Of a stretch of DNA of 64,000 nt, positions 4,886 through 37,572 are shown one piece after another (the stretch's first letter is position 1; each line of letters opens with the position of its first letter). The position numbers and the translations under genes are program-made. Source of the DNA: Mobula hypostoma (lineage: Eukaryota); contig NC_086108.1 in the NCBI RefSeq assembly GCF_963921235.1, positions 67,334,001 through 67,398,000 of the forward strand, in the 5' to 3' direction. Under the pieces are notes generated by a model. It searched no databases. It was not told the DNA's origin and saw only the letters and a list, made by a program, of their open reading frames with translations.

Positions 4886-6380
4886 TCAGTGAGAGAATTG
4901 ACAGCGACGGGATGAGGCAATCCTTCTGATGTCGGGCCTGTATTCTGTTGTGGCAATTCTGAGGCACTGGCCAAGATGTGCATTGGAGAGTCTGTTTCTG
5001 TCCTGGTTCTTCATAAAGTTCATTGAAGAAAACGATGACTCACATATGTACGTGGAGGGGAACAGTGTGAGTAGGAGCATTGCAATTGCTCTCGTGTTTT
5101 TGAATTGAGTTTGGGGAACCACGTTGATCCAAAAGTCACTCACCCCAACGTCCTTGTGTTGTGCTTTGAGCAAATCAGATGTTCCCATTTCCAAGGCCTC
5201 CACTTGAAGAGTTGCCTCATCTATGGAAGGCACCAGTCTTTTGGCCTCTGCAGTCCACTGGCCGTCAGCCGAAACAAAGAACGGCTGTCTCAGGAAGAGG
5301 AGGATGTCACCTGAGAGTTTAGGGGAGCTTTCAAGTCGTTCCCTGAAGTTTTCTGCCAAGCTCATCACGAAATCCTTCATTACTGGATCCTCCCGCATTT
5401 CGTTCTTTTCGCAATGCTCCCACAGACGTGGAAAGTGTAACTTTCTCCCATGAATATCTTTCTCCAAAAGGTTCAGCTTTGACCGGAAAGCTTCAATCGC
5501 CTCGTACATGTCCGCAACTGTGTGGTTGTTGCCTTGTAATTGCAGATTAAGTTGATTTAGATGAGACATGATGTCACACAAAAAAAGAACACGTGCCATC
5601 ACCCTGTTGTCACTTAAAAACCTCTTAAATCCTTGGGCATTTTGGCTCTGCAGGCTGGATAAAAATGACACAAGCTCATCGCACAGGTCGCACACCCTCT
5701 CCAACACATGGCCTTCGCTCAGCCAGCGTACATCATTATGCAGCAAAAGACCTTTGTGTTCTGCTGACATTTCCTCCAGCAATGCTCTGAAAAGGCGATG
5801 TTGCAGACTAGAACTCTCACAAATGAAATTTACCAGTCTTGTCACAGTATTTCCCCCACACAGTTTGGCGCACAACACTGATTTGTGAACAATGCAATGA
5901 AATGCCAAGAGTGCTGGGATAACAACGGTAAACCTGCTTACCAAGCCCTTGTGTTGTCCCACCATCGACGGAGCCCCATCGGTGACGACGGACACAAGTT
6001 TGCTCACATCCAAGCCATTCTTCTCAAAGAACTGTGTCAATTCGTAAAAAAATTATTTCCCCAGTTGTGCGCCCAGGCAGAGGAAGCAAACAAAGTAGCT
6101 CTTCCCGAAAGGACTTCCCATCAAAAGATTTTGTGAACACAGATAGCTCTTCCATATCAGTACGGTCACAGGACAAGTCTTTGGCTAGTGATATGGTTTC
6201 TGATTTCTCCAAATCGGTGAGTAGATTGGAAAAACACTCCTCTGCTAAGACTTCTACTCTCCTTGTTGCCGTGTTAGCCAATAATGGCACCGTCTTTAAT
6301 AGCTCCACAACCATTTTCTTGGTTTTCTCATCATTACTTAAAACTTCGCCAACCATATCAATTGCACACGTTTTAATCAA
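4886..6380 (-). pseudogene. hAT transposase (frameshift near 6030; N-terminal BED-finger region apparently deleted)
   Basis: ORFs 6024-6380 and 4886-6040 carry TDGAPSMVG, HCIVH (CxxH), VRWLS and STYICESSFS, the hAT catalytic and dimerisation motifs. Confidence 0.92.
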
Positions 6381-7043
6381 CTCAGCATCGCGCGCTCTAC
6401 GGGGACGTAAGTTCAGTGTATGGTGTGGGATGAGGTTAAAATAAATTAGAGCAGCGCGCGCTTTATTTACATGTTATGACAGGTACATTCACGTAAGTGC
6501 CAATGGGTCGGCGCAGTCCTGACATTTGCTTCTCGCAGTCTGGACCTGGCCCGCGGTCCGCCTATTGGGGCTGTCTGTCATAGAATGATGATTGAAAGAA
6601 AATCGCAGTTGGAAGCTGAAAACCTGGGGATACACATTGTATTGAAAGGACAGGCAGTGGGCAGAGGGGATGGGGTAGCTTTGTTGCTAACATCTGAAAC
6701 AAGAATGTTACTGGGAATGAAAGGGTTAATGCATAAGGAGTGTTTGATGGTCTGAGCCTGTACTTGCTGGAGTTTACAAGAATGAGGAGGGATCTCATTG
6801 AAACCTATTGAAAATTGTAAAGCCAAAAAGTGTTGCTGTGGAGAGGATATTTCCAATAATGGGAGAGTCAAGGACCAGAGGTCACAGCCTCTGATCAGAA
6901 GGATATCCTTTTATAATGGAGATGAGGAGGAATTTCTTTAACCAGATGGTGGTGAATCTGTGGAATTCATTGCCACAGTTAGCTGTGGAGGTCAAGTTAT
7001 TGAGGATATTAAAATCAGAGGGTGACAGGTTCTTGATCAGTAA

Positions 7044-9650
7044 GAATCATAATCAGAATCATGTTCATTATCATCGGCATATGTTGAGAAATTTGTGAAT
7101 TTAGTGGCAGCAGCACAATACAATGCATGATAAAATAAATGGATTACTTTAAGCATATGTACACTAAATAGTTAAATTAAAAATAAGTAGTGCAAAATCA
7201 AAACTAATAAAAGAAGTGAGATGGTGTTCAATTCCCATTTAGGAATCAGATGGCAGACGGGTAGAGACTGCTCCTGAATCACTGAGTGCATACCTTTAGG
7301 CTGCTGTACCTTCTTCCAGATGGAAACACTGAGAAGGGGGCATGTTCTGGGTGATGGAGGTCCTTAATGATGTGAGCTGCCTTTCTGAGGCACCACTCCT
7401 TGAAGATGTTTTGGATCCTGCAGAGGCTAGCGTGTGCTTAGCTCACTGCTCTACTCTCTCTATACACATGACTGTGTGGCTGGGAATAGCTCAAATGCTA
7501 TCTATAAATTTGCTGACGATACATTCATTGTTGATAGAACCTCCGGTAGTGACAAGAGGGCATACAGGAGTGAGATATGCCAACTAGTGGAATGGTGCCG
7601 CAGCAACAACCTGGCACTCAATGTCAGTAGAGCTGATTGTGGACTTCGGGAAGGGTAAGATGAAGGAACACATACCAATCCTCATAGAGGGATCAGATGT
7701 GGAGAGAGTGAGCAGTTTCACATTCCTGGACGTCAAGATCTCTGAAGATCTAACTTGGTGCCAACATATCGATGTAGTTATAAAGAAGGCAAGGCAGTGG
7801 CTATACTTTATTAGGAGTTTGAAGAGATTTGACATGTCAACAAATACACTCAAAAACTTCTATAGTTGTACCGTAGAGAGCATTCTGATGGGCTGCATCA
7901 CTGTCTGGTATGGAGAGGCTACTGCACAGGACTGAAAGAAGCTGCAGGAGGTTGTAAATCTAGTCAGCTCCATCTTGGGTACTAGCCTACAAAGTACCCA
8001 GGACATCTTTAGGGAGCGGTGTCTCAGAAAGGCAGTGTCCATTATTAAGGACCTCCAGCACCTAGGGCATGCTCTTTTCTCACTGTTACCATCAGGTAGG
8101 AGGTACAGAAGCCTGAAGGCACACACTCAATGATTCAGGAACAGCTTCTTCCCCTCTGCCATCCAATTCCTAAATGGACATTGAATCTTTGGACACTACC
8201 TCACTTTTTTAAATATACAGTATTTCTGTTTTTGCAAATTTTTTTTAGATCTGTTCAATATACATAATTGATTTACTTGTTTATTTATAATAATAACAAT
8301 AATAATAATAATACTTATTATTTTTCTCTGCTAGATTATGTATTGCATTGAACTGCTGCTGCTAAGTTAACAAATTTCATGTCACATGCCGGTGTTAATA
8401 AACTTGATTCTGATTCTGACATGAGCTGACAAATTTTACAACTTTCTGTAGCTTCTTTCGATACTGTGCAGTGCCCTGCCCCCCACCAACCCCATACCAG
8501 GTGGCGATGCAGCCTGACAGAATGCTCTCCACGGTACATCTGTAGAAGTTTTCAAGTGCTTTAGGTGGCAAAAACCAAATCTCCTTAAATTCCTAATGAA
8601 ATACATCGGTTGCCTTGCCTTCTTTATAACTGCATTGATGTGTTGAGACCAGGTTAGATCCTCAGAGACCTTGACACCCAGGAACTTGAAGTTGCTCACT
8701 CTCTCTACTTCCGATCCATCTATGAGGATTGGCCTGTGTTCCCTCATCTTCCCCTTCCTGAAGTTTACAATCAGCTCTTTGGTCTTACCGACATTGAGCA
8801 CAAGGTTTTTGCTATGACACCACTCAACTAGCTGGTATATTTCACTCCTGTACACTCCCTTATCTCCATCTGAAATTCTGCTAACAATGGTTGTATCATC
8901 ATCAAATTTATAGATGGCATTTGAGCTATTCCTAGCCACACATTCGTGGGTGTAGAGAGAGTAGAGCTGTGAGGTAAGCACGCACACCTGTAGCGCACCA
9001 TTGTCGATCATCAGTGAGGAGGAGATATTATTTTCAATCCACATAGATTTTGGTCTTCCGGTTAGGAAGTCAAGGATCCAATTGCAGAGGGAGGTACAGA
9101 GGCACAAGTTCTGTAGCTTTTTGATCAGAAATGTAGGAATGGTGGTGTTAAACGCTGAGCTATAGTCAACAATCAGCATTCTGACATAAGTATGTATATT
9201 GTCCAGATCACTTATAGCCACATGAATAGCCATTGAGATTGCATCTGCCATAGACCTATTGTGGTGGTAGACAAATTGCAGCGGGTCCAAGTCGTTGCTG
9301 AGGCAGGAATTGATTCTAATGATGACCAACTTCTCAAAGCTACATTCTTCACTTTTGAAATCGCCCTCCACAAGTCATACCTGGTTTTCTTGTACAGACC
9401 TGGGTCACCAGACTTGAATACCACAGATCCAGCCCACAGCAGATGACAAACCTCTTGGTTCATCCATGGCTTTTGGGTTGGGAATGTAGAGTAAGCTTTC
9501 ACAGGCATACACTCATCCACACAGGTTTTAATGAAATCGGTAACAACTGCAGTATACCCATCCATACTTGAAGATAACTCACTGGACAGTCCAGTCCACT
9601 GATTCAAAGCAGTCCTGTAAGCACTCCTGTGCTTCCCTTGTTAAGAGTGC
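7044..9650 (-). mobile_element. Rex1/Babar LINE, 5'-truncated, split by a second copy
   Basis: RT ORF 8436-9371 (LDPLQF..NRSMADAI..YVRMLIVDYSSAFNT..KFDDD). Its 3' part with the (gaatca)-type tail lies at 7044-7430 and joins 8420. Confidence 0.88.
7431..8419 (+). mobile_element. Rex1/Babar LINE 3' fragment inserted in opposite orientation
   Basis: YKFADD and ELIVDF..KKARQWLYFIRSLKRF peptides; ends aataaacttgattctgattctg. Confidence 0.88.
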
Positions 9651-9789: not shown

Positions 9790-10720
9790 ATTACCTATCT
9801 ATGCCCGTTTCCTGCCTAAAGCTTCCATGGTCTTTAACCTTGCCCGTTAAGCTCTTTGTGAGATCTTATTAAGACTTCTTCGAATCCAGCTACATCATAC
9901 TCACTGGCTTTTGCTTAACAATTCTACTAGTTATATCCTCAATGAAAATGTCTTGGATTTGCTAACAATGATTTGTCATTCATAAGCCAATACTGACTTT
10001 GTCCAACCCATTAATATTTTCCAAGAGTTCTGTTTCAGATTTTTTTAATAATACATTCCAGCATTTTCCCCACTGATGATGTTAGACTTACTGGTCTGCA
10101 GTTCCCTGATTTTTTTCTCTTCCCCTTCATTTGAAATTCTGAGATTACATTCGCCATCTTCCAGTTTGTAGGATTTGCCCCAGAAACTAAAGAATTTTGG
10201 AAGATGGACTCCATGTATTTATTATTTAAAAGGTAACTTTCTTAAGTACTTTAGGATGTAGACCATCGAGCCTTGGGGATTTGTAAACCTTTGACCCGAC
10301 TGTTATCTGTAGATTGGCATCTTTACTAATACTGATTTCCTTCTACTTAGCCCTCTCTCTAGAGCCTAACATACCTAAGAGATTGTGTCTTCCTTTGTGA
10401 AGATAATATGAAATTGTGGGTTTAACTTTTCTGTCCTTTCTTTATCCCAATCATAACCTCTCTGCTCTTTCTTTCCGCAGTGGTCCTACATTATCATTGC
10501 CTGCCTTTTATTCTTAACATAATTATGGAAGATTTTACAGTTATTTTTTATGCTCTCTTCAAGATTACTCTCATACTACATCTTCTTAATCATGTTTTAG
10601 TCTTTTTTTTTGCTAAATTCTGGACTCCTCCCAGTCCTCTGGCTTAATTCTTCCTTTGGCAATTTTATATCCCTCCTCATTAGATCACTATGATTGTTAA
10701 TTTCCTTTGCAAGTCACAGC
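9790..10720 (-). mobile_element. Old, heavily decayed CR1 ORF2 fragment
   Basis: Remnants resemble the CR1 RT region on the minus strand (e.g. ccagcattttccccactgatgatgttagacttactggtctgcagttccc; compare 36010-36050). Confidence 0.6.
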
Positions 10721-12084
10721 AGAACGCTTTTTCCTAACTTACTTCAGTGACAGTGAAGAATGAGTAATTGGTGTGATTCACGTACTGTATATATTCTTTA
10801 AAAAGTTTTACATTTGCTTCCTGAGTGTTGTGTGATGATTTTCCAGATGGTCATAAGAATAAGCAGGTCAAAGCAAAAAGAGGTTCACACTTAACAAGAA
10901 AATAATATTGAAAAGGTCCCACATTTTCATTTACACATTTATATACCTGGAAGTATTTTGGAGCATATATTGGAATTAATGTGGTACAGTAATTGCAAAA
11001 TAAATATTGGAAGTAGCCGCCAGGTGAAACGACATCTGTACAGAAGATGGCAACCCAAGTTATCATCTCTGTTTTTCTCTCCACATGCCTGATCTGCTAT
11101 GTATTTTTTTCTGTTTTTATGTTAATTTACTAAATTTTTTGTGCATCCTTTCCAATGTAATCATATCTTTCTGGTAATATGGAGATCAACCTGTATACAC
11201 CACTCAAACTAGGCCCTGACTAGTGTTGTATTTAGTTCTAGTGTTTATTGATAGTAATTTAAGGATAAATTTCTCCAAAGATATGGACGATATTTTATAC
11301 ATATGAAATATTTATCTCTGAAGTACACCCACCTGAGAGAGCAGGCAAAGCTTCGTCTTAATTATTCACATAAAAGATTGTATCTCGTATGGTGCAGCAA
11401 TATCTGCACTGATATGTCAGCCTAGATGTTAATCTTAAGTCACTTGAAATGCAGTGCACTGATTCAGAGCAAAATATCTATACCTTAAAACTATCACAAC
11501 CCAAACCTGGCAGTGCCAGGCTGGTAAGTGTAACTTCAGAAAGCAAAAAAAAACTTTGCAAGTTTTCTATCTCTGTTGAGGGAAAATGGATTTCTGTTGG
11601 AGCAGGTATAGAAAGAATAATATCAATAGCAACACACACAAAATGCTGGAGAATTTCAGCAGGTCAGGCAGCATCTATGGAAAAGAATAAAGAGTCAAGT
11701 AGTATCAATAATACTGCTGCTGGGGCAAAGGAGGTGCAATTTCTATGGAGATTAATAATTTATTTTGCTGCCACAAAACAAATTTCGGTGATAAAGCTAA
11801 TCTGAATTGGAGATTTCATTGAGGCAGTGTTTGGAATAGGGAGAAGGAAAATCTCTTACAATTCATTTGATTTGGAAAGTAAGAACCAGAGCCATATAGG
11901 ATTGATTCGCAAACACTGTCTAAACAGTGAATACCATTAAAACACAATGGGTCATCTGGCTACATAGAAAATTATCTCTATGTAGACAGTCTACTCTTGT
12001 TTCATTCCAGGGAAGTGAAAATGTACCAACTGAAGATAAGTTATTGGAGTTACTGTATATAAAAACAGTAAGATGTTTTTCATC

Positions 12085-12300
12085 TCTACCATGGGCTGCA
12101 AATGCGCTCCAGTCTGTGTGCTGGAATTGGTGCTGAAGAGCAGAGTCAGCCCCCTCCAGCCGGATCTTAATAGTCTTCACTGTGGGTTTCACATGTTTAA
12201 TGACCGGGCTATACTTGGGAAGCAGAAACAATGAAAGATGATCGGACTGTCCCAGGTGGGGGAGGGTAGTTGCTTTGTAAGCATCAGCCACATTTGTGTA
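12085..12300 (-). mobile_element. Rex1/Babar endonuclease-region fragment
   Basis: ORF peptide ADAYKATTLPHLGQSDHLSLFLLPKY (APE SDH motif) followed by FQHTDWS. Confidence 0.75.
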
Positions 12301-12893
12301 GCATTAAGATCTCACAAAATCTGAAAGAAAACCAGCTTTTGCTGCAAGCTAACAACTTGTTTTATCTCATGAAAGGTATCGGCCTGAAACATTGACTGTT
12401 TATTCCTCTTTAGAGATGCTGCCCGAGTTGCTGAGTTCATCCAGCAGTTCGTGTTTGTTGCTCTGAATTTCCAGTATCTGCAGAATCTCTTATGTTTAAA
12501 AATTGTTTTATCTGAGGTTTGCATGAAGTAGCAAGTGGACTTCCCTTCAATCCTTTTTATTTCACTTTCAAAAATATTTTGACGTAATTTCAAATGTAAT
12601 TAAAAGCCACATCAATCCAATGTAGATGTGGGACAATAAGGAGTTGGTTAAAATATATGATACTCTCTGGTATACTCATGCAGGGGATTCGTTGCTACAT
12701 CTACAATCGGTCTATTGAAGAAGATGGGGGTGAGAGGTCACTCCCTCCAACAAGCAATCAAGTCCTTGTCAAATGCAGCAGAAGAAAGCAGTAATTGGGT
12801 TTGGATTAAAAGGAAAGACAACAACTGGGCTGCAAGATGAAGACAGGAGGGTATGCAATTGAGGGGGGTGTATCTGGGATGCCAGGTAGCACC

Positions 12894-12962
12894 GTTGAGC
12901 CCCCTGGAGACGTCGTGGGCTTATCAACGAAACGTCAAAGAAGGAGGGTGCCCACCTGATGA
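12894..12962 (+). ncRNA. Candidate non-circularly permuted (pseudoknotted) hammerhead ribozyme
   Basis: GUC triplet at 12912-14. Stem III GACGU 12909-13 pairs ACGUC 12932-36. Stem I GUGGGC 12915-20 pairs GCCCAC 12950-55. CUGAUGA at 12956-62 and GAAA at 12929-32. Stem II-like GUUGA 12894-98 pairs UCAAC 12924-28. Confidence 0.65.
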
Positions 12963-13252
12963 CCCCAATGACGCACCTACCCTCCCTCCTTGTCACCACT
13001 CCAAACCCACTGCCAACTTCGAGAGTGCTGGCTTACCATAGGGATTGAAACATCAAGTCCTAGTAGCTCTACTGATCCTCTGGGAGAAAATCAGTGACTG
13101 CTGTGAAAATGCAGCTGGCGACAAGGGAAAGACCGTATGACAGCTGGAGAGACAGCTGACAGGAGGAAATAGACCCCAACGGGGCTGTTATGGGCTAGCT
13201 ACCCATAACAGCAGGTTCCGTCACCTTGTCAGGGCATAAGAGCCACCCTCAT

Positions 13253-16200
13253 TTGGCTACAGAAAGTTTAAAAAGAAGTATACCCCCAGAGTCTGCGAGA
13301 GCAAGAAGACTCTCTGACTGACCTCCCGATAACGAACCTTGGCATGGACACGACAATGAATCAAGAAAATGGCAATACTCTTGAGAAAGCAGCAGCTAGA
13401 TATGTTCTTCAGACTTGTAGGTGTAGCTGGACTAAAGTAACATCAACTCGTGGTCTAAAAATTCATCAAGGACAGAAGAAATGCTTGAAAATCTCCAACC
13501 CAGGGCCCCGCATTGACCAGATTCTGTTAAGAGGATCAATGCAGATGTGAGCCTGATCTTAAGTGGCATCAAGGGATCAGCAGAAAAGAAGTTGGAGAGG
13601 GTGGGTGACTTGATCTACAGCTACGGAAAGGAGAAATTTGGAGTGAAGGAACAAGTCAGCAGGAAAGACATGCCTCCTCCCCCCAAATCCCGTCGTCTCC
13701 AGGAAATCCAACGACTTGCTAAAGAGAGAAGAGGCCTGAGGAAGTTGTGGAAAAAAGCAGCAGCCGAAGAAAGGGACGGCATCAACCTCCTTCAAGTGGA
13801 CCTAAAACAGAGGCTCTCGAAACTGCGCAGAGCAGAGAATCTAAGGAAACGACGCAAAAAGAAGGAAAAAACAAGAACAGACTTCTTCAAAGATCCCTTT
13901 AAATATGTAAAAGGCATTTTCACAAAAGAGAAAAGCGGATACTTGAAAGTATCAAAAGAGGAGGTTAAAAGACATCTCAGAATCATCCATACTGCTAAGC
14001 AAAAAGATGAACCGATATTTGTCCCAGCTGACATCCCACCAATCTCACCCCCACAACATCAATTTAACATCAGCCCTCCCAAGCTGAGCGAGGTGAAAGA
14101 GGCAGTGAAGAAGGCAAGATTGGCATCAGTGCCAAGCCCTAACGGTGTTCCGTATTGTGTCTACAAGAACAACCTAGATGTTCTGAAATTCCTTTGGAAA
14201 AACATGAGGGTTGTGTGGGAAAAGCAAATTATCCCCAAAGTCTGGAGAAGAATGGGGGGAGTTCTGATCCCAAAAGAAAAGAATTCGTCCACCATCGAGC
14301 AGTTTTGCCAAATAAACCTTCTGAATATAGAGGACAAGATCTTTTTGGGCAAAGACTTACAAAGTATCTGAAACAAAATCATTTGATTGATACGTCAATC
14401 CAAAAGGCTGGCATAGCAGGCTTCTCGGGATGCCTTGAACATACCAGCGTCATATGGCATCAAATCCAGATGGCTAAGAAAGAAAGAAGGAATCTGCTTG
14501 TCTTGTTCCTTGACCTGACCAATGCCTATGGATCAGTTCCTCATTCCCTACTGTGGACTGCTTTTGAATTCTTTCAGGTGCCTGCAACAACAACAAATCT
14601 GGTAAAACACTACTTCCAGGATCTGCAAGTTTGTCTCACAAGATCAGACTTCACCACAACGTGGCAACCACTGGAAGTAGGCATCATGGCGGGGTGCACC
14701 ATCTCCCCATTGGCCTTTACTATGGCCATGGAGCTCATTATCAGACCCTCAAAATGGGTTGCAGGAGGAAAAGGGCTGCAGTTTGGTCAATGGTTACCAC
14801 TGATATGAGCCTATATGGACGATATAACAATACTGACGATAACTGTCCCCTGCACCAGGAGACTTCTGGAAAAGCTTCATCAAAACACCACATGGGCGAG
14901 GATGAAGATCAAGTCCAGCAAGTGCAGAACCATCTCCATTGTCAAAGGTCAAGTCACGGATAAAAGATTTTAGATTGACGGGACACCTGTCCCAACTGCT
15001 TCAGAAATGCCAGTGAAGAGCTTGGGCCAATGGTATGATGCTAAGCTCAAGGACACTGAGCAGTTTGAATAACTCAAAAAGGATACCATCATGTACATAG
15101 CTCACATCAACAAGACCTTGCTGCCAGGAAAACTCCAGCTGTGGTGCTTCCAGTTCGGCATACTCCAAGACTCATGTGGCCTTTAACAGTGTATGAAATC
15201 CCCATCAGCAAGGTTGAAAAGCTCAAAAGAATGATCAGCACACATGTAAATCAGTGGCTTGGACTTCCACAATGCTTAAGTCCTGTTGGACTGTACGGGA
15301 ACGGCAAATTGGAATTACCAATTGCAGGTCTCGTGGAAGAATTCAAATGCACCAAAGCAAGGTTGGTCATAACCCTCACTGAATCTGAAGATACCGTTAT
15401 TCGAACAGTGGCCCCCCGTGTGGCAACGGGGAGGAAGTGGACTCCATCTGAAGCTGTTCAGAGTGCTATGTCTGCTCTTCGCTTCAGGGATTTGGTTGGC
15501 CAAGTCCAACATGGGACAGCAGGGCTCAGGCTCGTCCCAAAAGCTCCTCAGTGGCACAAGGCAACATCACTGCAGAAGAGACGGCTCGTGGTGGAGGAGT
15601 TGAGAAGACAGGAGGAGGCAGAGCGAAACGACTGGGCCATCTCAATGGCCAAGCAGGGCCAATGGACTAATTGGGAGAGCCTGGAAAAGAGGAAACTTAG
15701 CTGGCGTGACATCTGGGAGATGGAGGGATCTCGACTAAGTTTTGTCATCAGAGCCACTTATGACCTCCTACCCACACCCCAGAACCTGAACCAGTGGTGG
15801 GGAGAAGACCCTGCTTGCTCTCTTTGTCAAGCACCCAGATCACTAAGGCACATTTTAACAGGATGCACCGTGAACCTCACCCAGAGGCGGTACACTTGGT
15901 GGCATAACCAAGTTCTCAGACAGCTGGCATCAGTCTTGGAACAGAGGTGAATTGTCATAAATGCTCTCCCACAAACATCGGCAGGAAATGTCCACATTAC
16001 ACGATTTGTGCCAGCAGGCCAACCTCCAGAGCACCATATAACATCAAAAGATGTAAGCATTCTGCAGGTTGCTCGGGATTAGAAAATGGACGTGGACTTG
16101 GAAAAAAAGCTTGTGTTTCCCCCAGACATTGCAGCTACATCACTCCGGCCAGACACGGTCCTGTGGTCCACAACAGCCAGGCTGGCATATGTTGTGGAAT

Positions 16201-16487
16201 TGACAGTACCATGAGAAGATGGTGTCGAAGAAGCTTATGAGAGGAAAAAGACCAAGTACTCTGAACTGGCAACTGAAGCTGCCCAGAACGGCTGGAAGAC
16301 CAAGATTTTCCCTGTAGAAGTGGGATGCAGGGGATTCGTTGCTACATCTACAATCAGTCTATTGAAGAAGATGGGGGTGAGGGGTCACTCCCTCCAACAA
16401 GCAATCAAGTCCTTGTCAAATGCAGCAGAAGAAAGCAGCAATTGGATTTGGATTAAAAGGAAAGACAACAACTGGGCTGCAAGATGA
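13253..16487 (+). pseudogene. Hero-type ZF-RT-CCHC-RLE polyprotein, disrupted by stops and frameshifts
   Basis: ORF fragments 13344-13550, 13547-14371, 14155-14808 and 15141-15950, then manual translation to ...WIWIKRKDNNWAAR* (stop 16485-87). Confidence 0.88.
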
Positions 16488-16804
16488 AGACAGGAGGGTA
16501 TGGAACTGAGGGGGGTGTATCTGGGATGCCAGGTAGCACCGTTGACACAAAGCACTGCAGATGCCAGAAAACAGAAAATGAGGGTGGTAGGCAAAAGCAA
16601 GAAATGAACAGCAAATTAGGTGTAGAATGTAGAAACAGAAACAGCTAATATTTCAGATCTGAAACTTTTTGCCAGAACTGGGAAAGAGGGAAAAAGAAGT
16701 TAGTTTTCAGAGGCAGTGAGCAAGGGATGGGTAGAACAAAGGGAATAATTCTGGTGGTGCAAGTCCAAAAGGCTTAATGGAACAGGTATCATCACACTTA
16801 GCTT

Positions 16805-16992
16805 AGAACATAGAATGTAGTAAACTTACAGCACAATACAGGCCCTTCGTCCCACAAAGCTGTGCTGAACATGTCCATACCTTAGAACTACCTAGGCTTA
16901 CCCATAGCCCTTTATTTTTCTAAGCTCCATATACCTTTTCAGGAGTCTCTTAAAAGACCCTGTTGTTTCCGCAAACAATAGGGTCTTTTAAG
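16805..16992 (-). mobile_element. CR1 3'-end fragment ending in a fold-back hairpin
   Basis: Matches the CR1 3' end at 56290-56440; 20-bp inverted repeat at 16949-16992. Confidence 0.8.
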
Positions 16993-17630: not shown

Positions 17631-18790
<1,160 letters not shown>

Positions 18791-18800
18791 ACATCATTTT

Positions 18801-19084
18801 CTGACCTCAATCCGATAGAAGATTTGTGGGCAGAACTGAAAAAGCGTGTGCGAGCCAGGATGCCTACAAACGTGACTCAGTTACACCAGTTCTGTCTGGA
18901 GGAATGGAACAAAATTCCAGCAACTTACTGTGAGACACTTGTGGAAGGCTACCCAAAATGTTTGACCCAAGTTAAACAATTTAAAGGCAATGCTACCAAA
19001 TACTAACAAAGTGTATGTAAACTTCTGACGCACTGGGAATGTGATGAAAGAATTAAAAGCTGAAATAAATCATTCTCTCTACTA
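18801..19084 (+). mobile_element. Second copy of the same Tc1 3' end, inverted
   Basis: DLNPIEDLWAELKKRVRAR...FKGNATKY* plus the inner DR; reverse complement of 17782-18065. Confidence 0.9.
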
Positions 19085-35409: not shown

Positions 35410-37572
35410 CTAGAGGAGGCAGACAAAGATGTCATGATGCAGAAGCCAGGAATGGAAATGACTCGATGATTGGGAAGTTTTTAAAATCCAACAAAAGGCA
35501 ACTAAAAAAGCTATAAGAAAGGAAAAGATAAAATATGAGGGAAAACTAGCCGATACCAAGCAGGATACCAAAAGCTTTTTCAGTTCATATAAAGAATAAA
35601 AAGGAGGTGAGAGTTGATATTGGACCACTGGAAAACGATGCTGGTGAGGTAGTAATGGGGGACAAAGAAATGGCAGATGAACTTAATGCTACTTTGCATC
35701 AATCTTCACTGTGGAAGATACTAGCTGTATGCCAGATGTCCGTGAATGCCAGGAAACAGGAGTGAGGGAGTGAGTGCCATTGCAATTGCAAAGGAAAGAA
35801 TGCTAGGTAAACTCAAAGGTCTTAAGATGGATAAGTCACCTGGGCCAGATGGACTACATCCCAGAGTCCTGAAAGAGGTTGCTGAAGGGACAAAGTATGC
35901 ATTGATCATGATCTTTGAAGAATCACTTGATTCTGGCATGGTCCCGGAGAACTGGAAGATTGCAAATGTCATTCCACTCTTTAAGAAGGGAGGAAGGCAA
36001 AAGAGAGGAAATTATAGGCCAGTTAGCTTAACTTCGGTGTTTGGGAAAGTGTTAGAGTCCATTATTAAGGATGAGATTTCAGGGTGCTTGGGGACAAATG
36101 ATAAAATAACTCAAATTCAGCATGCTTTCTGTAAGGGAAAATCTTGCCTGACAAATCTGTAGGAATTCTTCGAAGAAGTAACTAGCAGGGTGGACAAAGC
36201 AGTCAGTGGATGCCATTTACTTAGATTTTCAGAAGGCATTTGTGCTTAATTGAGGCTGCTTAACAAGATAAAATCCTATGGTGTTGCAGGAAAGATACTG
36301 GCATGGATAGAGGAATGGCTGACAGCCAGGAGGCAGCAAGTGGGAATAAAGGGGGCCTTTTCTGGTTGGCTGCTAGTGGTGTTCCTCAGGGGTCAGGATT
36401 GGGACCACAACTTTTCACATTGTCTGTCAGTGATTCAAATAGTGGAATCGATGGCTTTGTGGCAAAGTTTGCAGATGATACAAAGATAGGTGGAGAAGTA
36501 GGTAGTGCTGAGGAAGCAATACGATTGCAGCAAGACTTAGACAAATTGGAAGAATGAGCAAAAAAGTGGCAGATGGAATACAATGTTGGGAAATATATGA
36601 TAATGCATTTTGGTAAAAGGAACAATAATGCAGACTATTATCTAAGTGTGAAATTCAAACATCAGGGGTACAAAGTGATTTAGGAGTCCTCGTGCATGAC
36701 TCCCAGAAGGTTAATTCATAGGTTTAGTCTGTGGTATAGAAGGCAAGTGCAATGTTGACATTTATTTCAAGGGGAATAGTATATAAAAACAAGGAGACAA
36801 TGCTGAAGCTTTATAGGACACCAGTCAGGCGACACTTGGAATATTGTCGCAACACGCATCAGAGTTGCTGGTGAACGCAGCAGGCCAGGCAGCATCAACC
36901 CAAGGGTTGACCCAAGGGTCTCGGCCCAAAACATCAACTGTACCTCTTCCTAGAGATGCTGCCTGGCCTGCTGCATTCACCAGCAACTTTGATGTGTGTT
37001 ACTTGAATTTCCAGCACCTGCAGAATTCCTCATGTTTGCGCCTTGGAATATTGTCAACAGTTTTGGGCCCTATATCTCTGAAAAGATGTGTTGTCATTGG
37101 AGAGAGTCAGAGGAGGTTTACAAGGATGATTCTGGGAATGAAGGGGTTAACAGATGAGGAGCATTTCGCAGCTTTGGGCCTGTACTCTCCAGAATTTGGA
37201 CGAATGCATGGGGATCTCATTGAAACCTACTGAATGTCCAAAGGTCTAGATAAGGTGGATGTGCTCTGGTGGGGGCATTCTGAACTAAAAGGCACAGCCT
37301 CAAAACAGAACAGAAGTAAGGAGGAATTTTTTTTAACCAAAGTGTGGTGAATCTATGGAATGCTCTGCCACAGACTGTGATTGAGGCCAAGTCTGTGGGG
37401 ATATTTAAAGCAGAAGTTGATAGATTCCTGACTGGTTGGGGCATCAAGGGATATGGTGAATGGGCAAGTGTAGGGGTTGGGTGGGATCCAGGATCAAGCA
37501 TGATGAAATGGTGGAGCAGACTCGATGGGCTGAATGGCCTAATTCTGCTCCTATGTCTTATGGTCTTATGGA
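35410..37572 (+). mobile_element. CR1 LINE ORF2, 5'-truncated
   Basis: KSPGPDGLHPRVLKE, WKIANVIPLFKKG..NYRPVSLTS, SGVPQGSGLGP, KFADDTK, then the 3' UTR ending tgtcttatggtcttatg. Confidence 0.92.
36849..37041 (+). mobile_element. Short fold-back PLE terminal insertion with 14-bp TSD
   Basis: TSD CTTGGAATATTGTC at 36835-48 and 37042-55; ~48-bp inverted arms around a degenerate hammerhead. Confidence 0.85.

Follow-up and report, generated by a model that had tools for sequence, protein, structure and literature searches.

Hammerhead ribozymes can be described as three blocks, S, G and C, and their six permutations have been enumerated with block C assumed never to be interrupted (Eckert et al., 2023, PMC10085705; this and the other papers given here by PMC number are cited from the portions of their text available to us). 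One permutation, type SGC, was validated in that work through cleavage and compensatory mutants, and comes almost only from metatranscriptomes rather than from genomes of known organisms (PMC10085705). In the HRIMA-1 alignment of the same paper, stem II has 5 bp, the linker between stems I and II 4 nt and the link to the I–II helix 1 nt, with an unpaired U between A9 and G10.1. In the literature available, A9/G10.1 stands alone among the core positions in being known to accept an additional base, as it does in Penelope hammerheads too, and the accessible text of PMC3088659 describes only short core insertions.

Among retroelements, the hammerheads in the terminal repeats of Penelope elements and retrozymes are of type I and minimal; their stem III is unstable and they work in dimeric form (PMC4209133, PMC6765202), and a circular-template model has been proposed for Penelope elements (PMC6765202), which carry a GIY-YIG endonuclease. 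Self-cleaving RNA is likewise known from the non-LTR retrotransposons R2, L1Tc, RTE and Baggins, and HDV-like ribozymes sit at the 5′ end and free the element's RNA from a co-transcript (PMC6765202). The Hero clade (HEROFr, HEROTn, HERODr) has a single ORF in which the reverse transcriptase (RT) is followed by CCHC and PD..D/E endonuclease motifs (PMC2790886, PMC3636483), and neither a ribozyme nor a terminal repeat nor a circular template is mentioned for it in what is available of PMC2790886, PMC3636483 and PMC9004415. In the literature searched, with subscription papers and Repbase lying outside the search, we found neither a ribozyme in Hero elements nor any follow-up of type SGC; as a keyword, ‘Hero’ is absent from PMC10085705, PMC6765202 and bioRxiv 10.64898/2026.07.22.740005.

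Here we describe a candidate ribozyme in a Hero-like element, which belongs to the same RLE group as R2, in a 64,000-nucleotide stretch of the Mobula hypostoma genome (hereafter the window). An earlier note had proposed a rearranged hammerhead at 12894..12962 within a Hero-type retrotransposon, cleaving after C12914. Our reading, to which we give a probability of roughly 0.7, is that the motif is a hammerhead ribozyme of new topology in the 3′ UTR of Hero-like RLE retrotransposons. The features of the window copy are as follows.

12678..13073, + strand: duplicate of the element's own 3′ end, at its 5′ side; 12678–12898 is 97.3% identical to 16325–16545 (221 nt)
12846..12853, + strand: 5′ strand of the distal P0 helix, pairing with 12978–12985 (8-bp duplex, seen in this copy's subfamily)
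12863..12866, + strand: 5′ strand of the proximal P0 helix, pairing with 12963–12966, the bases directly 3′ of A9 (from pairing and covariation)
12867..12893, + strand: hairpin H, between the P0 5′ strand and G10.1 (−14.3 kcal/mol)
12894..12898, + strand: stem II 5′ strand, starting from G10.1 and unlinked to A9 (from pairing and covariation)
12899..12905, + strand: P4 5′ strand, of the helix that links stems I and II at their distal ends, the interaction helix of type SGC (from a run of pairs)
12906..12908, + strand: non-bulged strand of the k-turn, G3n, G2n and A1n (k-turn definition of PMC4382518)
12909..12920, + strand: block S, with the stem III 3′ strand, U16.1 (12913), C17 (12914) and a stem I strand (12915–20)
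12924..12936, + strand: block G, with the stem II 3′ strand, G12-A13-A14-A15.1 (12929–32) and a stem III strand
12937..12949, + strand: 3-nt k-turn bulge (12937–39), G1b-A2b-A3b (12940–42) and P4 3′ strand (12943–49)
12950..12962, + strand: block C without its stem II strand, with a stem I strand (12950–55) and C3-U4-G5-A6-N7-G8-A9 (12956–62)
12963..12985, + strand: P0 3′ strands, 12963–66 and 12978–85 (from pairing and duplexes)
13074..13301, + strand: 5′ UTR, joined seamlessly to the 3′ end (from copy comparison)
13302..16487, + strand: single RT and RLE ORF, broken (Pfam RVT_1, E 4e-11; TGA at 16485–87)
16488..16546, + strand: 3′ UTR belonging to the window copy, truncated after the stem II 5′ strand (from alignment)

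The duplicate comprises the last ORF codons, a TGA at 12838–40 and the 3′ UTR as far as ...CTACT; dispersed copies end in ...CTACT near 13073 and have unrelated flanks. The motif lies inside this duplicated 3′ end, in the 3′ UTR, 74 nt 3′ of the TGA. What the window holds is a dead insertion that keeps the core intact. Its ORF is damaged by frameshifts, stops and the absence of ~200 bp at 13535, and the second copy of the candidate ribozyme was lost at the 16546 truncation. The whole structural unit spans ~12846–12985 and is thus wider than the motif first noted; 12860–12990, the stretch that the earlier note would have transcribed, omits the distal P0 helix. P0, hairpin H, the k-turn signature, the position in the 3′ UTR and the 3′-end duplicate are all additional to that note. 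A first look at the 3.5 Gb genome gave 1592 candidates for the 3′ end and 96 for the 5′ UTR, which are not copy numbers.

At the start of the 5′ UTR (window 13078–13175) we observed a conserved row of short purine-looped hairpins with UGAC-like tetramer spacers, adjoining the proposed start point of reverse transcription and lying just past it. This row recurs in L064, L072, L073, L080, L099, L101, L102, L110, L113 and L192–L211, its fold reached a z of −2.4 in two of four tested, and it is a candidate binding platform for the element's protein.

Elsewhere in the window, broken ORFs at 4886–6473 (minus strand) resemble what we take to be a hAT-type transposase remnant; RT-like ORF fragments at 7588–9640 (both strands) and 11920–12303 (minus strand) presumably derive from another LINE type, and fragments at 18213–19006 (minus strand) presumably from a Tc1/mariner-like transposase. 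Short dispersed repeats flank the element at 12366–12498 and 16803–16972 and recur at 36914, 60453, 56271 and other loci.

The element's ORF is 62–77% identical to a relative, P0003, and 37–43% identical over 959 aa to the fugu protein BAC82598.1, which we take to be HEROFr. The available text of PMC2790886 lists HEROFr only as AB097130. In its single ORF an RT is followed by CCHC and PD..D/E endonuclease motifs, which is the Hero plan (PMC2790886, PMC3636483), and it has no specific target site, as the flanks of loci L004–L030, on many contigs, are unrelated. Its relatives at the protein level are found in bony fish, lancelet and bivalves; in ORF plan, lack of target specificity and hosts the element and the Hero clade are alike (PMC2790886, PMC3636483, PMC9004415, in the parts available). 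Solved R2 proteins match P0003 only at E 3e-23, in the RT part. Near the N-terminus, the element's ORF and P0003 carry a CxC...H...C stretch in a region that the fugu protein lacks, and in PMC2790886, as far as its text is available, no Cys-His motif upstream of the RT is reported for HERO. We call the element Hero-like rather than Hero because the label is based on similarity, to one fugu protein, and not on an RT tree. Membership of the Penelope-like elements was considered and rejected: four ORF pieces scanned gave no match to a GIY-YIG endonuclease, and the element has RLE motifs instead, so it may work like a Penelope-like element but is not one. No relatives were found among the viral contigs scanned.

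When checked on the sequence, every hammerhead core element and pairing named in the earlier note proved to be in place: stem III (12909–13 with 12932–36, 5 bp), stem I (12915–20 with 12950–55, 6 bp), stem II with its upstream strand (12894–98 with 12924–28, 5 bp), GAAA at 12929–32 and CUGAUGA at 12956–62, with C11.1 at 12928, C12914 as position 17 and the predicted cut at 12914/12915. A further helix between 12899–905 and 12943–49, here P4, which the note had called possible, is real and conserved, being present in 31 of 31 motifs. The block order is indeed S-G-C, a non-circular permutation, as opposed to the circular orders CGS, GSC and SCG of types I, II and III; the expectation that standard descriptors would miss it was borne out by an Rfam scan of window positions 10000–16000, which gave no ribozyme match up to E 10. 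The hammerhead reading itself stood in its core and helices; as a plain type SGC it did not, since A9 does not lead into stem II.

A strict descriptor, which demands in S-G-C order an NUH flanked by stems I and III (each ≥4 bp), GAAA and CUGANGA, found one match in the window, the motif at 12894..12962, and none on the minus strand. All 12 core positions are kept in 27 of the 46 family copies examined. Folding of single sequences is uninformative for a fold with a pseudoknot: a pseudoknot-free fold of 12885–12970 is unremarkable (z = +0.35), as expected because the helices cross, and the minimum-energy fold of 12840–12990 differs from the one proposed.

Conservation was assessed in 79 metagenome loci encoding relatives at 39–76% protein identity. 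Within ≤400 nt after the ORF end, the strict descriptor matched 47 of the 79, as against 0/79 in an ORF control and 0/79 in a reverse-strand control. A relaxed scan with positions 16.1 and 17 left free, from which the seven of the 79 loci with <130 nt of 3′ flank were left out, matched 60/72 loci vs one in each control. A covariance model, run on 28 of the 79 loci (L098 left out), added 21, so that 68/79 have the fold after the stop codon; it recognised 0 of 12 unrelated pattern matches. Six of the 11 loci without a match end before a complete motif. At L065:2179-2303 and L108:2196-2319, the covariance-model motif lies 350–580 nt after the ORF match, further than usual.

A chance arrangement of short motifs within one repeat family, which unremarkable single-sequence folding and the missing Rfam match might have suggested, has next to no probability: 2.56 Mb of shuffled window gave only two strict-descriptor matches, in 68 of 79 loci the motif holds to a fixed position 3′ of the stop codon, and its helices covary (see below). 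Chance is already refuted.

The earlier note had named as a check the alignment of the equivalent UTR from other families, and the core was found conserved in distant related elements (60 relaxed matches, 33 clusters). Among these 60 matches U4, G5, A13, A14 and A15.1 are invariant, C3, A6, G8 and A9 are kept in 59 and G12 in 56, an invariance that is partly built in, each box having been permitted no more than one mismatch in the scans; at N7 all four bases occur. At the two positions left free in the scan, U16.1 is present in 58/60 and position 17 is A in 25, C in 20, U in 15 and G in none, vs a background of ~30% G, so that the NUH rule for the cleavage triplet holds. A near-invariant core with a free N7 and a non-G position 17 is the hammerhead's own pattern. 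From sequence evidence of this kind, we consider it highly probable that the motif self-cleaves after N17, which in the window would be after C12914.

At least three further families in the Mobula genome carry the motif with different helices (L142–L168, L148/L163 and L166), and ORF remnants lie upstream in most of the further-family loci checked. A fifth motif variant was observed at G000:C1:43857375-43857425. In this genome, a loose S-G-C pattern gave 7064 matches vs 2823 for the reversed pattern; the motif may be very abundant, because standard descriptors and Rfam miss it.

For analysis of the structure, 54 motifs were reduced to 33 (80% identity or short flanks) and then to 31 by excluding two decayed own-genome copies (L147, L163). 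Anchored on the core, these 31 motifs show pairing in 171 of 186 cells of stem III (cross-family null 71%), 173 of 186 of stem I (null 49%) and 146 of 155 of stem II with its upstream strand (null 58%), where the first pair is G-C in 25/31 and four of five pairs show two-sided changes. For P0, 204 of 248 cells are paired (cross-family null 46%), and two-sided changes occur in 7/7 pairs. Hairpin H, directly 3′ of the P0 strand and directly 5′ of G10.1, is paired in 166/186 cells, placement ties having been broken in favour of P0. P4 has 5–10 bp, and a run of at least five pairs occurs in 28/31 motifs vs 33% in the cross-family null. We tried and rejected the canonical stem II formed by the bases after CUGANGA: it is paired in 65/155 cells, equal to its 41% null, and has its first pair in 3/31 motifs. 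The bases directly after CUGANGA pair instead with the P0 strand 5′ of hairpin H.

Covariation, the other check that the earlier note had named, is evident in 26 of 29 pairs of five helices, which show two-sided changes. In a sequence-only MAFFT alignment of the 31 motifs, 82.3% of cells are paired, vs 58.1% when shuffled and 34–42% when slid, and two-sided changes occur in 231 cells vs 76.5 when shuffled; paired cells are not independent events, because the motifs are related by descent. The six helices (P0, H, II, P4, III and I) occupy disjoint nucleotides and covary together, in the strand order P0 - H - IIa - P4a - S - G - P4b - C - P0′, an order that we did not find in the literature searched.

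On this pairing evidence, the hammerhead core is opened between A9 and G10.1: in the 31 motifs the stem II 5′ strand follows A9 neither directly nor after 1–2 nt. P0 and H would close the A9/G10.1 gap as a four-way junction, holding stem II on the A9/G12 pair. The resemblance to type SGC is close, in the S-G-C order, in the short I–II linker and in a helix that connects stems I and II on their other sides, and the medians match HRIMA-1 (stem II 5 bp, I–II linker 4 nt with a range of 1–8, link 1 nt). Unlike type SGC, the stem II 5′ strand lies at the 5′ end, that is, 5′ of block S, and block C is interrupted; a P0/H four-way junction appears to stand in for the A9–G10.1 link, and both strands connect P4 with stem III, mostly via a k-turn signature. 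In effect, the motif can be read as the SGC fold with its 3′ end joined to its 5′ end and the chain re-opened between A9 and G10.1. We have not filed it as type SGC because the defining feature, an uninterrupted block C, fails, although it would work like one. The split-block-C topology falls outside the six permutations of Eckert et al.

The k-turn signature, a 3-nt bulge followed by GA opposite GA, lies between stem III and P4 in 23 of 31 motifs; at other bulge lengths it occurs in at most 4/31. The bulge and the following G.A and A.G pairs are those of the standard k-turn Kt-7, and in the window copy 3b.3n is A.G, as in Kt-7 (McPhee et al., 2014, PMC4382518, in the parts available). The third bulge base is U in 18/23. 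Unlike in Kt-7, the k-turn would here bend a hammerhead's stem III into its I–II helix, giving P4 the sharp turn away from stem III that it needs to meet stems I and II; nothing related to a k-turn in such a bend was found in the literature searched. The signature is absent from eight of the 31 (L094, L097, L103, L107, L109, L124, L125, L139). In some k-turn-less variants, stem III is joined to P4 without a linker on one strand, as in several HRIMA-1 sequences.

A conserved fold need not be catalytic, and the motif might be a 3′ UTR structure that docks the RT/endonuclease, possibly as a hammerhead relic. Such a role would suit its place near the 3′ end, where LINE proteins bind, as the R2 protein does to its own UTRs (PMC6765202, in part), as well as the missing canonical stem II, the intact cut site of inserted copies and the k-turn, often a protein site (PMC4382518, in part). 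Yet six covarying helices on separate nucleotides, without clash with stems I and III, argue against it; there is no evident reason for a docking fold to keep G8, G12 and the NUH rule while leaving N7 free; and in 18 of the 23 k-turns only one of 3n=G and 3b=C holds, a combination that by the rule in PMC4382518 needs nothing but ions to fold. We therefore regard a purely docking role as improbable; protein binding may be a second role of the motif.

Copy ends bear on the life cycle. Among the 26 loci of the first family that reach the 5′ UTR start, 24 pass without a break into a second copy of the element's own 3′ end and 14 extend past the predicted cut site; in a second family, 30 of 32 matches have a single junction and 12 of the 18 examined pass the cut site. 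Because copies usually continue in this way, long copies carry two candidate ribozymes: the covariance model found two motifs in 9/9 long loci given to it. The junction between 3′ UTR and 5′ UTR has no added letters in the loci inspected, and terminal repeats measure 55–1300 bp among 20 longer stretches and the window. A run-on from 3′ UTR to 5′ UTR is also seen in nine metagenome loci, where short-read assemblies may collapse repeats. Since copies are continuous past both junction and cut site, the template was most likely continuous across both.

Whether the two ends of a locus share a template was judged on shared derived sites only, because raw identity between the ends (81–97%) did not exceed identity to other copies. 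In the 13 of 21 long loci with both ends, 24 derived sites are common to the two ends of one locus, vs 13.7 +/- 2.6 in shuffled pairs, an excess to which one dimorphic site and CpG sites contribute most and which lends modest support to a common template. Six of 27 3′ ends run 4–5 nt into junction sequence, a weak support because those bases may be the true 3′ end.

No 5′ end lies at the cut site in 26 loci of the first family or in 18 of the second, and a genome search for 5′ ends piling up there returned two rows, both internal 3-nt deletions, where controls gave five and two rows, about one each resembling a true 5′ end. Absence of a pile-up is expected for a circle and equally for RNA that is never cut. 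The two deletions, in L170 and L171 (G000:C1:162306408; C59:51590123), lack 3 nt at the predicted cut site; this could be a ligation scar or CGT-CGT slippage, and both loci carry other deletions. One insertion, represented by two sequencing runs (X1, X2) of one study, begins at 12916, 1 nt past the predicted cut; the runs compared, four of the 24 listed and three of them presumably RNA, consist of assembled contigs, in which RNA ends do not show.

The ribozyme might also be active without any circle: an upstream repeat would free a defined 5′ end while the downstream copy stays inactive, for instance protein-bound, and overlong copies would be uncleaved tandem transcripts or RT jumps between RNAs. 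End-to-end template jumping is a property of the R2 RT. All structural evidence for a ribozyme applies equally to this alternative, the RNA of R2 and L1Tc is released from co-transcripts by HDV-like ribozymes, and for Penelope the proposed templates include uncleaved oligomers (both from the available text of PMC6765202); the insertion starting at 12916 also fits. Against it, a linear template from 12915 should leave 5′ ends there, and we count 0/26 and 0/18, whereas 14/26 and 12/18 copies pass the cut site and the junctions inspected hold no added letters. We consider it unlikely, though less so than a docking fold.

A circular-template life cycle of Hero-like elements is, on the sequences compared, somewhat favoured. 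Transcription across a terminally repeated copy and two cuts would yield a unit-length RNA; stems III, II, P4 and P0 would keep the 5′ product bound after cleavage, and the ends might be sealed again, by the ribozyme itself or by a ligase of the host. The protein would then start target-primed reverse transcription at a fixed internal point ~160 nt past the cut, and synthesis could run past full length on the circle, which would account for variable terminal repeats and for the intact cut site in inserted copies. With a circle made by two cuts and re-ligation, a ribozyme in the 3′ UTR would not remove the end at which reverse transcription starts. A motif placed in the 3′ UTR suits the Penelope model better than that of R2, with its HDV-like ribozyme at the 5′ end: the Hero-like candidate has a hammerhead core in the 3′ UTR instead. 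Unlike Penelope elements, with their GIY-YIG endonuclease and minimal hammerheads, the Hero-like element has an RLE and a large, monomeric, pseudoknotted fold. That an active split-block-C hammerhead with four-way junction and k-turn is present throughout a clade of RLE LINEs, which use it to propagate via circular RNA and more-than-unit reverse transcription, we consider an even proposition.

If true, this reading would overturn the working rule of an uninterruptible CUGAnGA block in hammerheads, and animal genomes would be seen to hold a non-circularly permuted ribozyme. For testing, at least 33 clusters of natural sequences are on hand, among which the k-turn-less variants are natural controls for the role of the k-turn. 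The R2 LINE group is being engineered for gene insertion; here a relative of R2 would be relying on a hammerhead in its 3′ UTR, on terminal repeats and, probably, on a template that is circular. The circular route has so far been proposed for Penelope elements and retrozymes, and the rolling-template model for Penelope would become testable in a second, unrelated retroelement.
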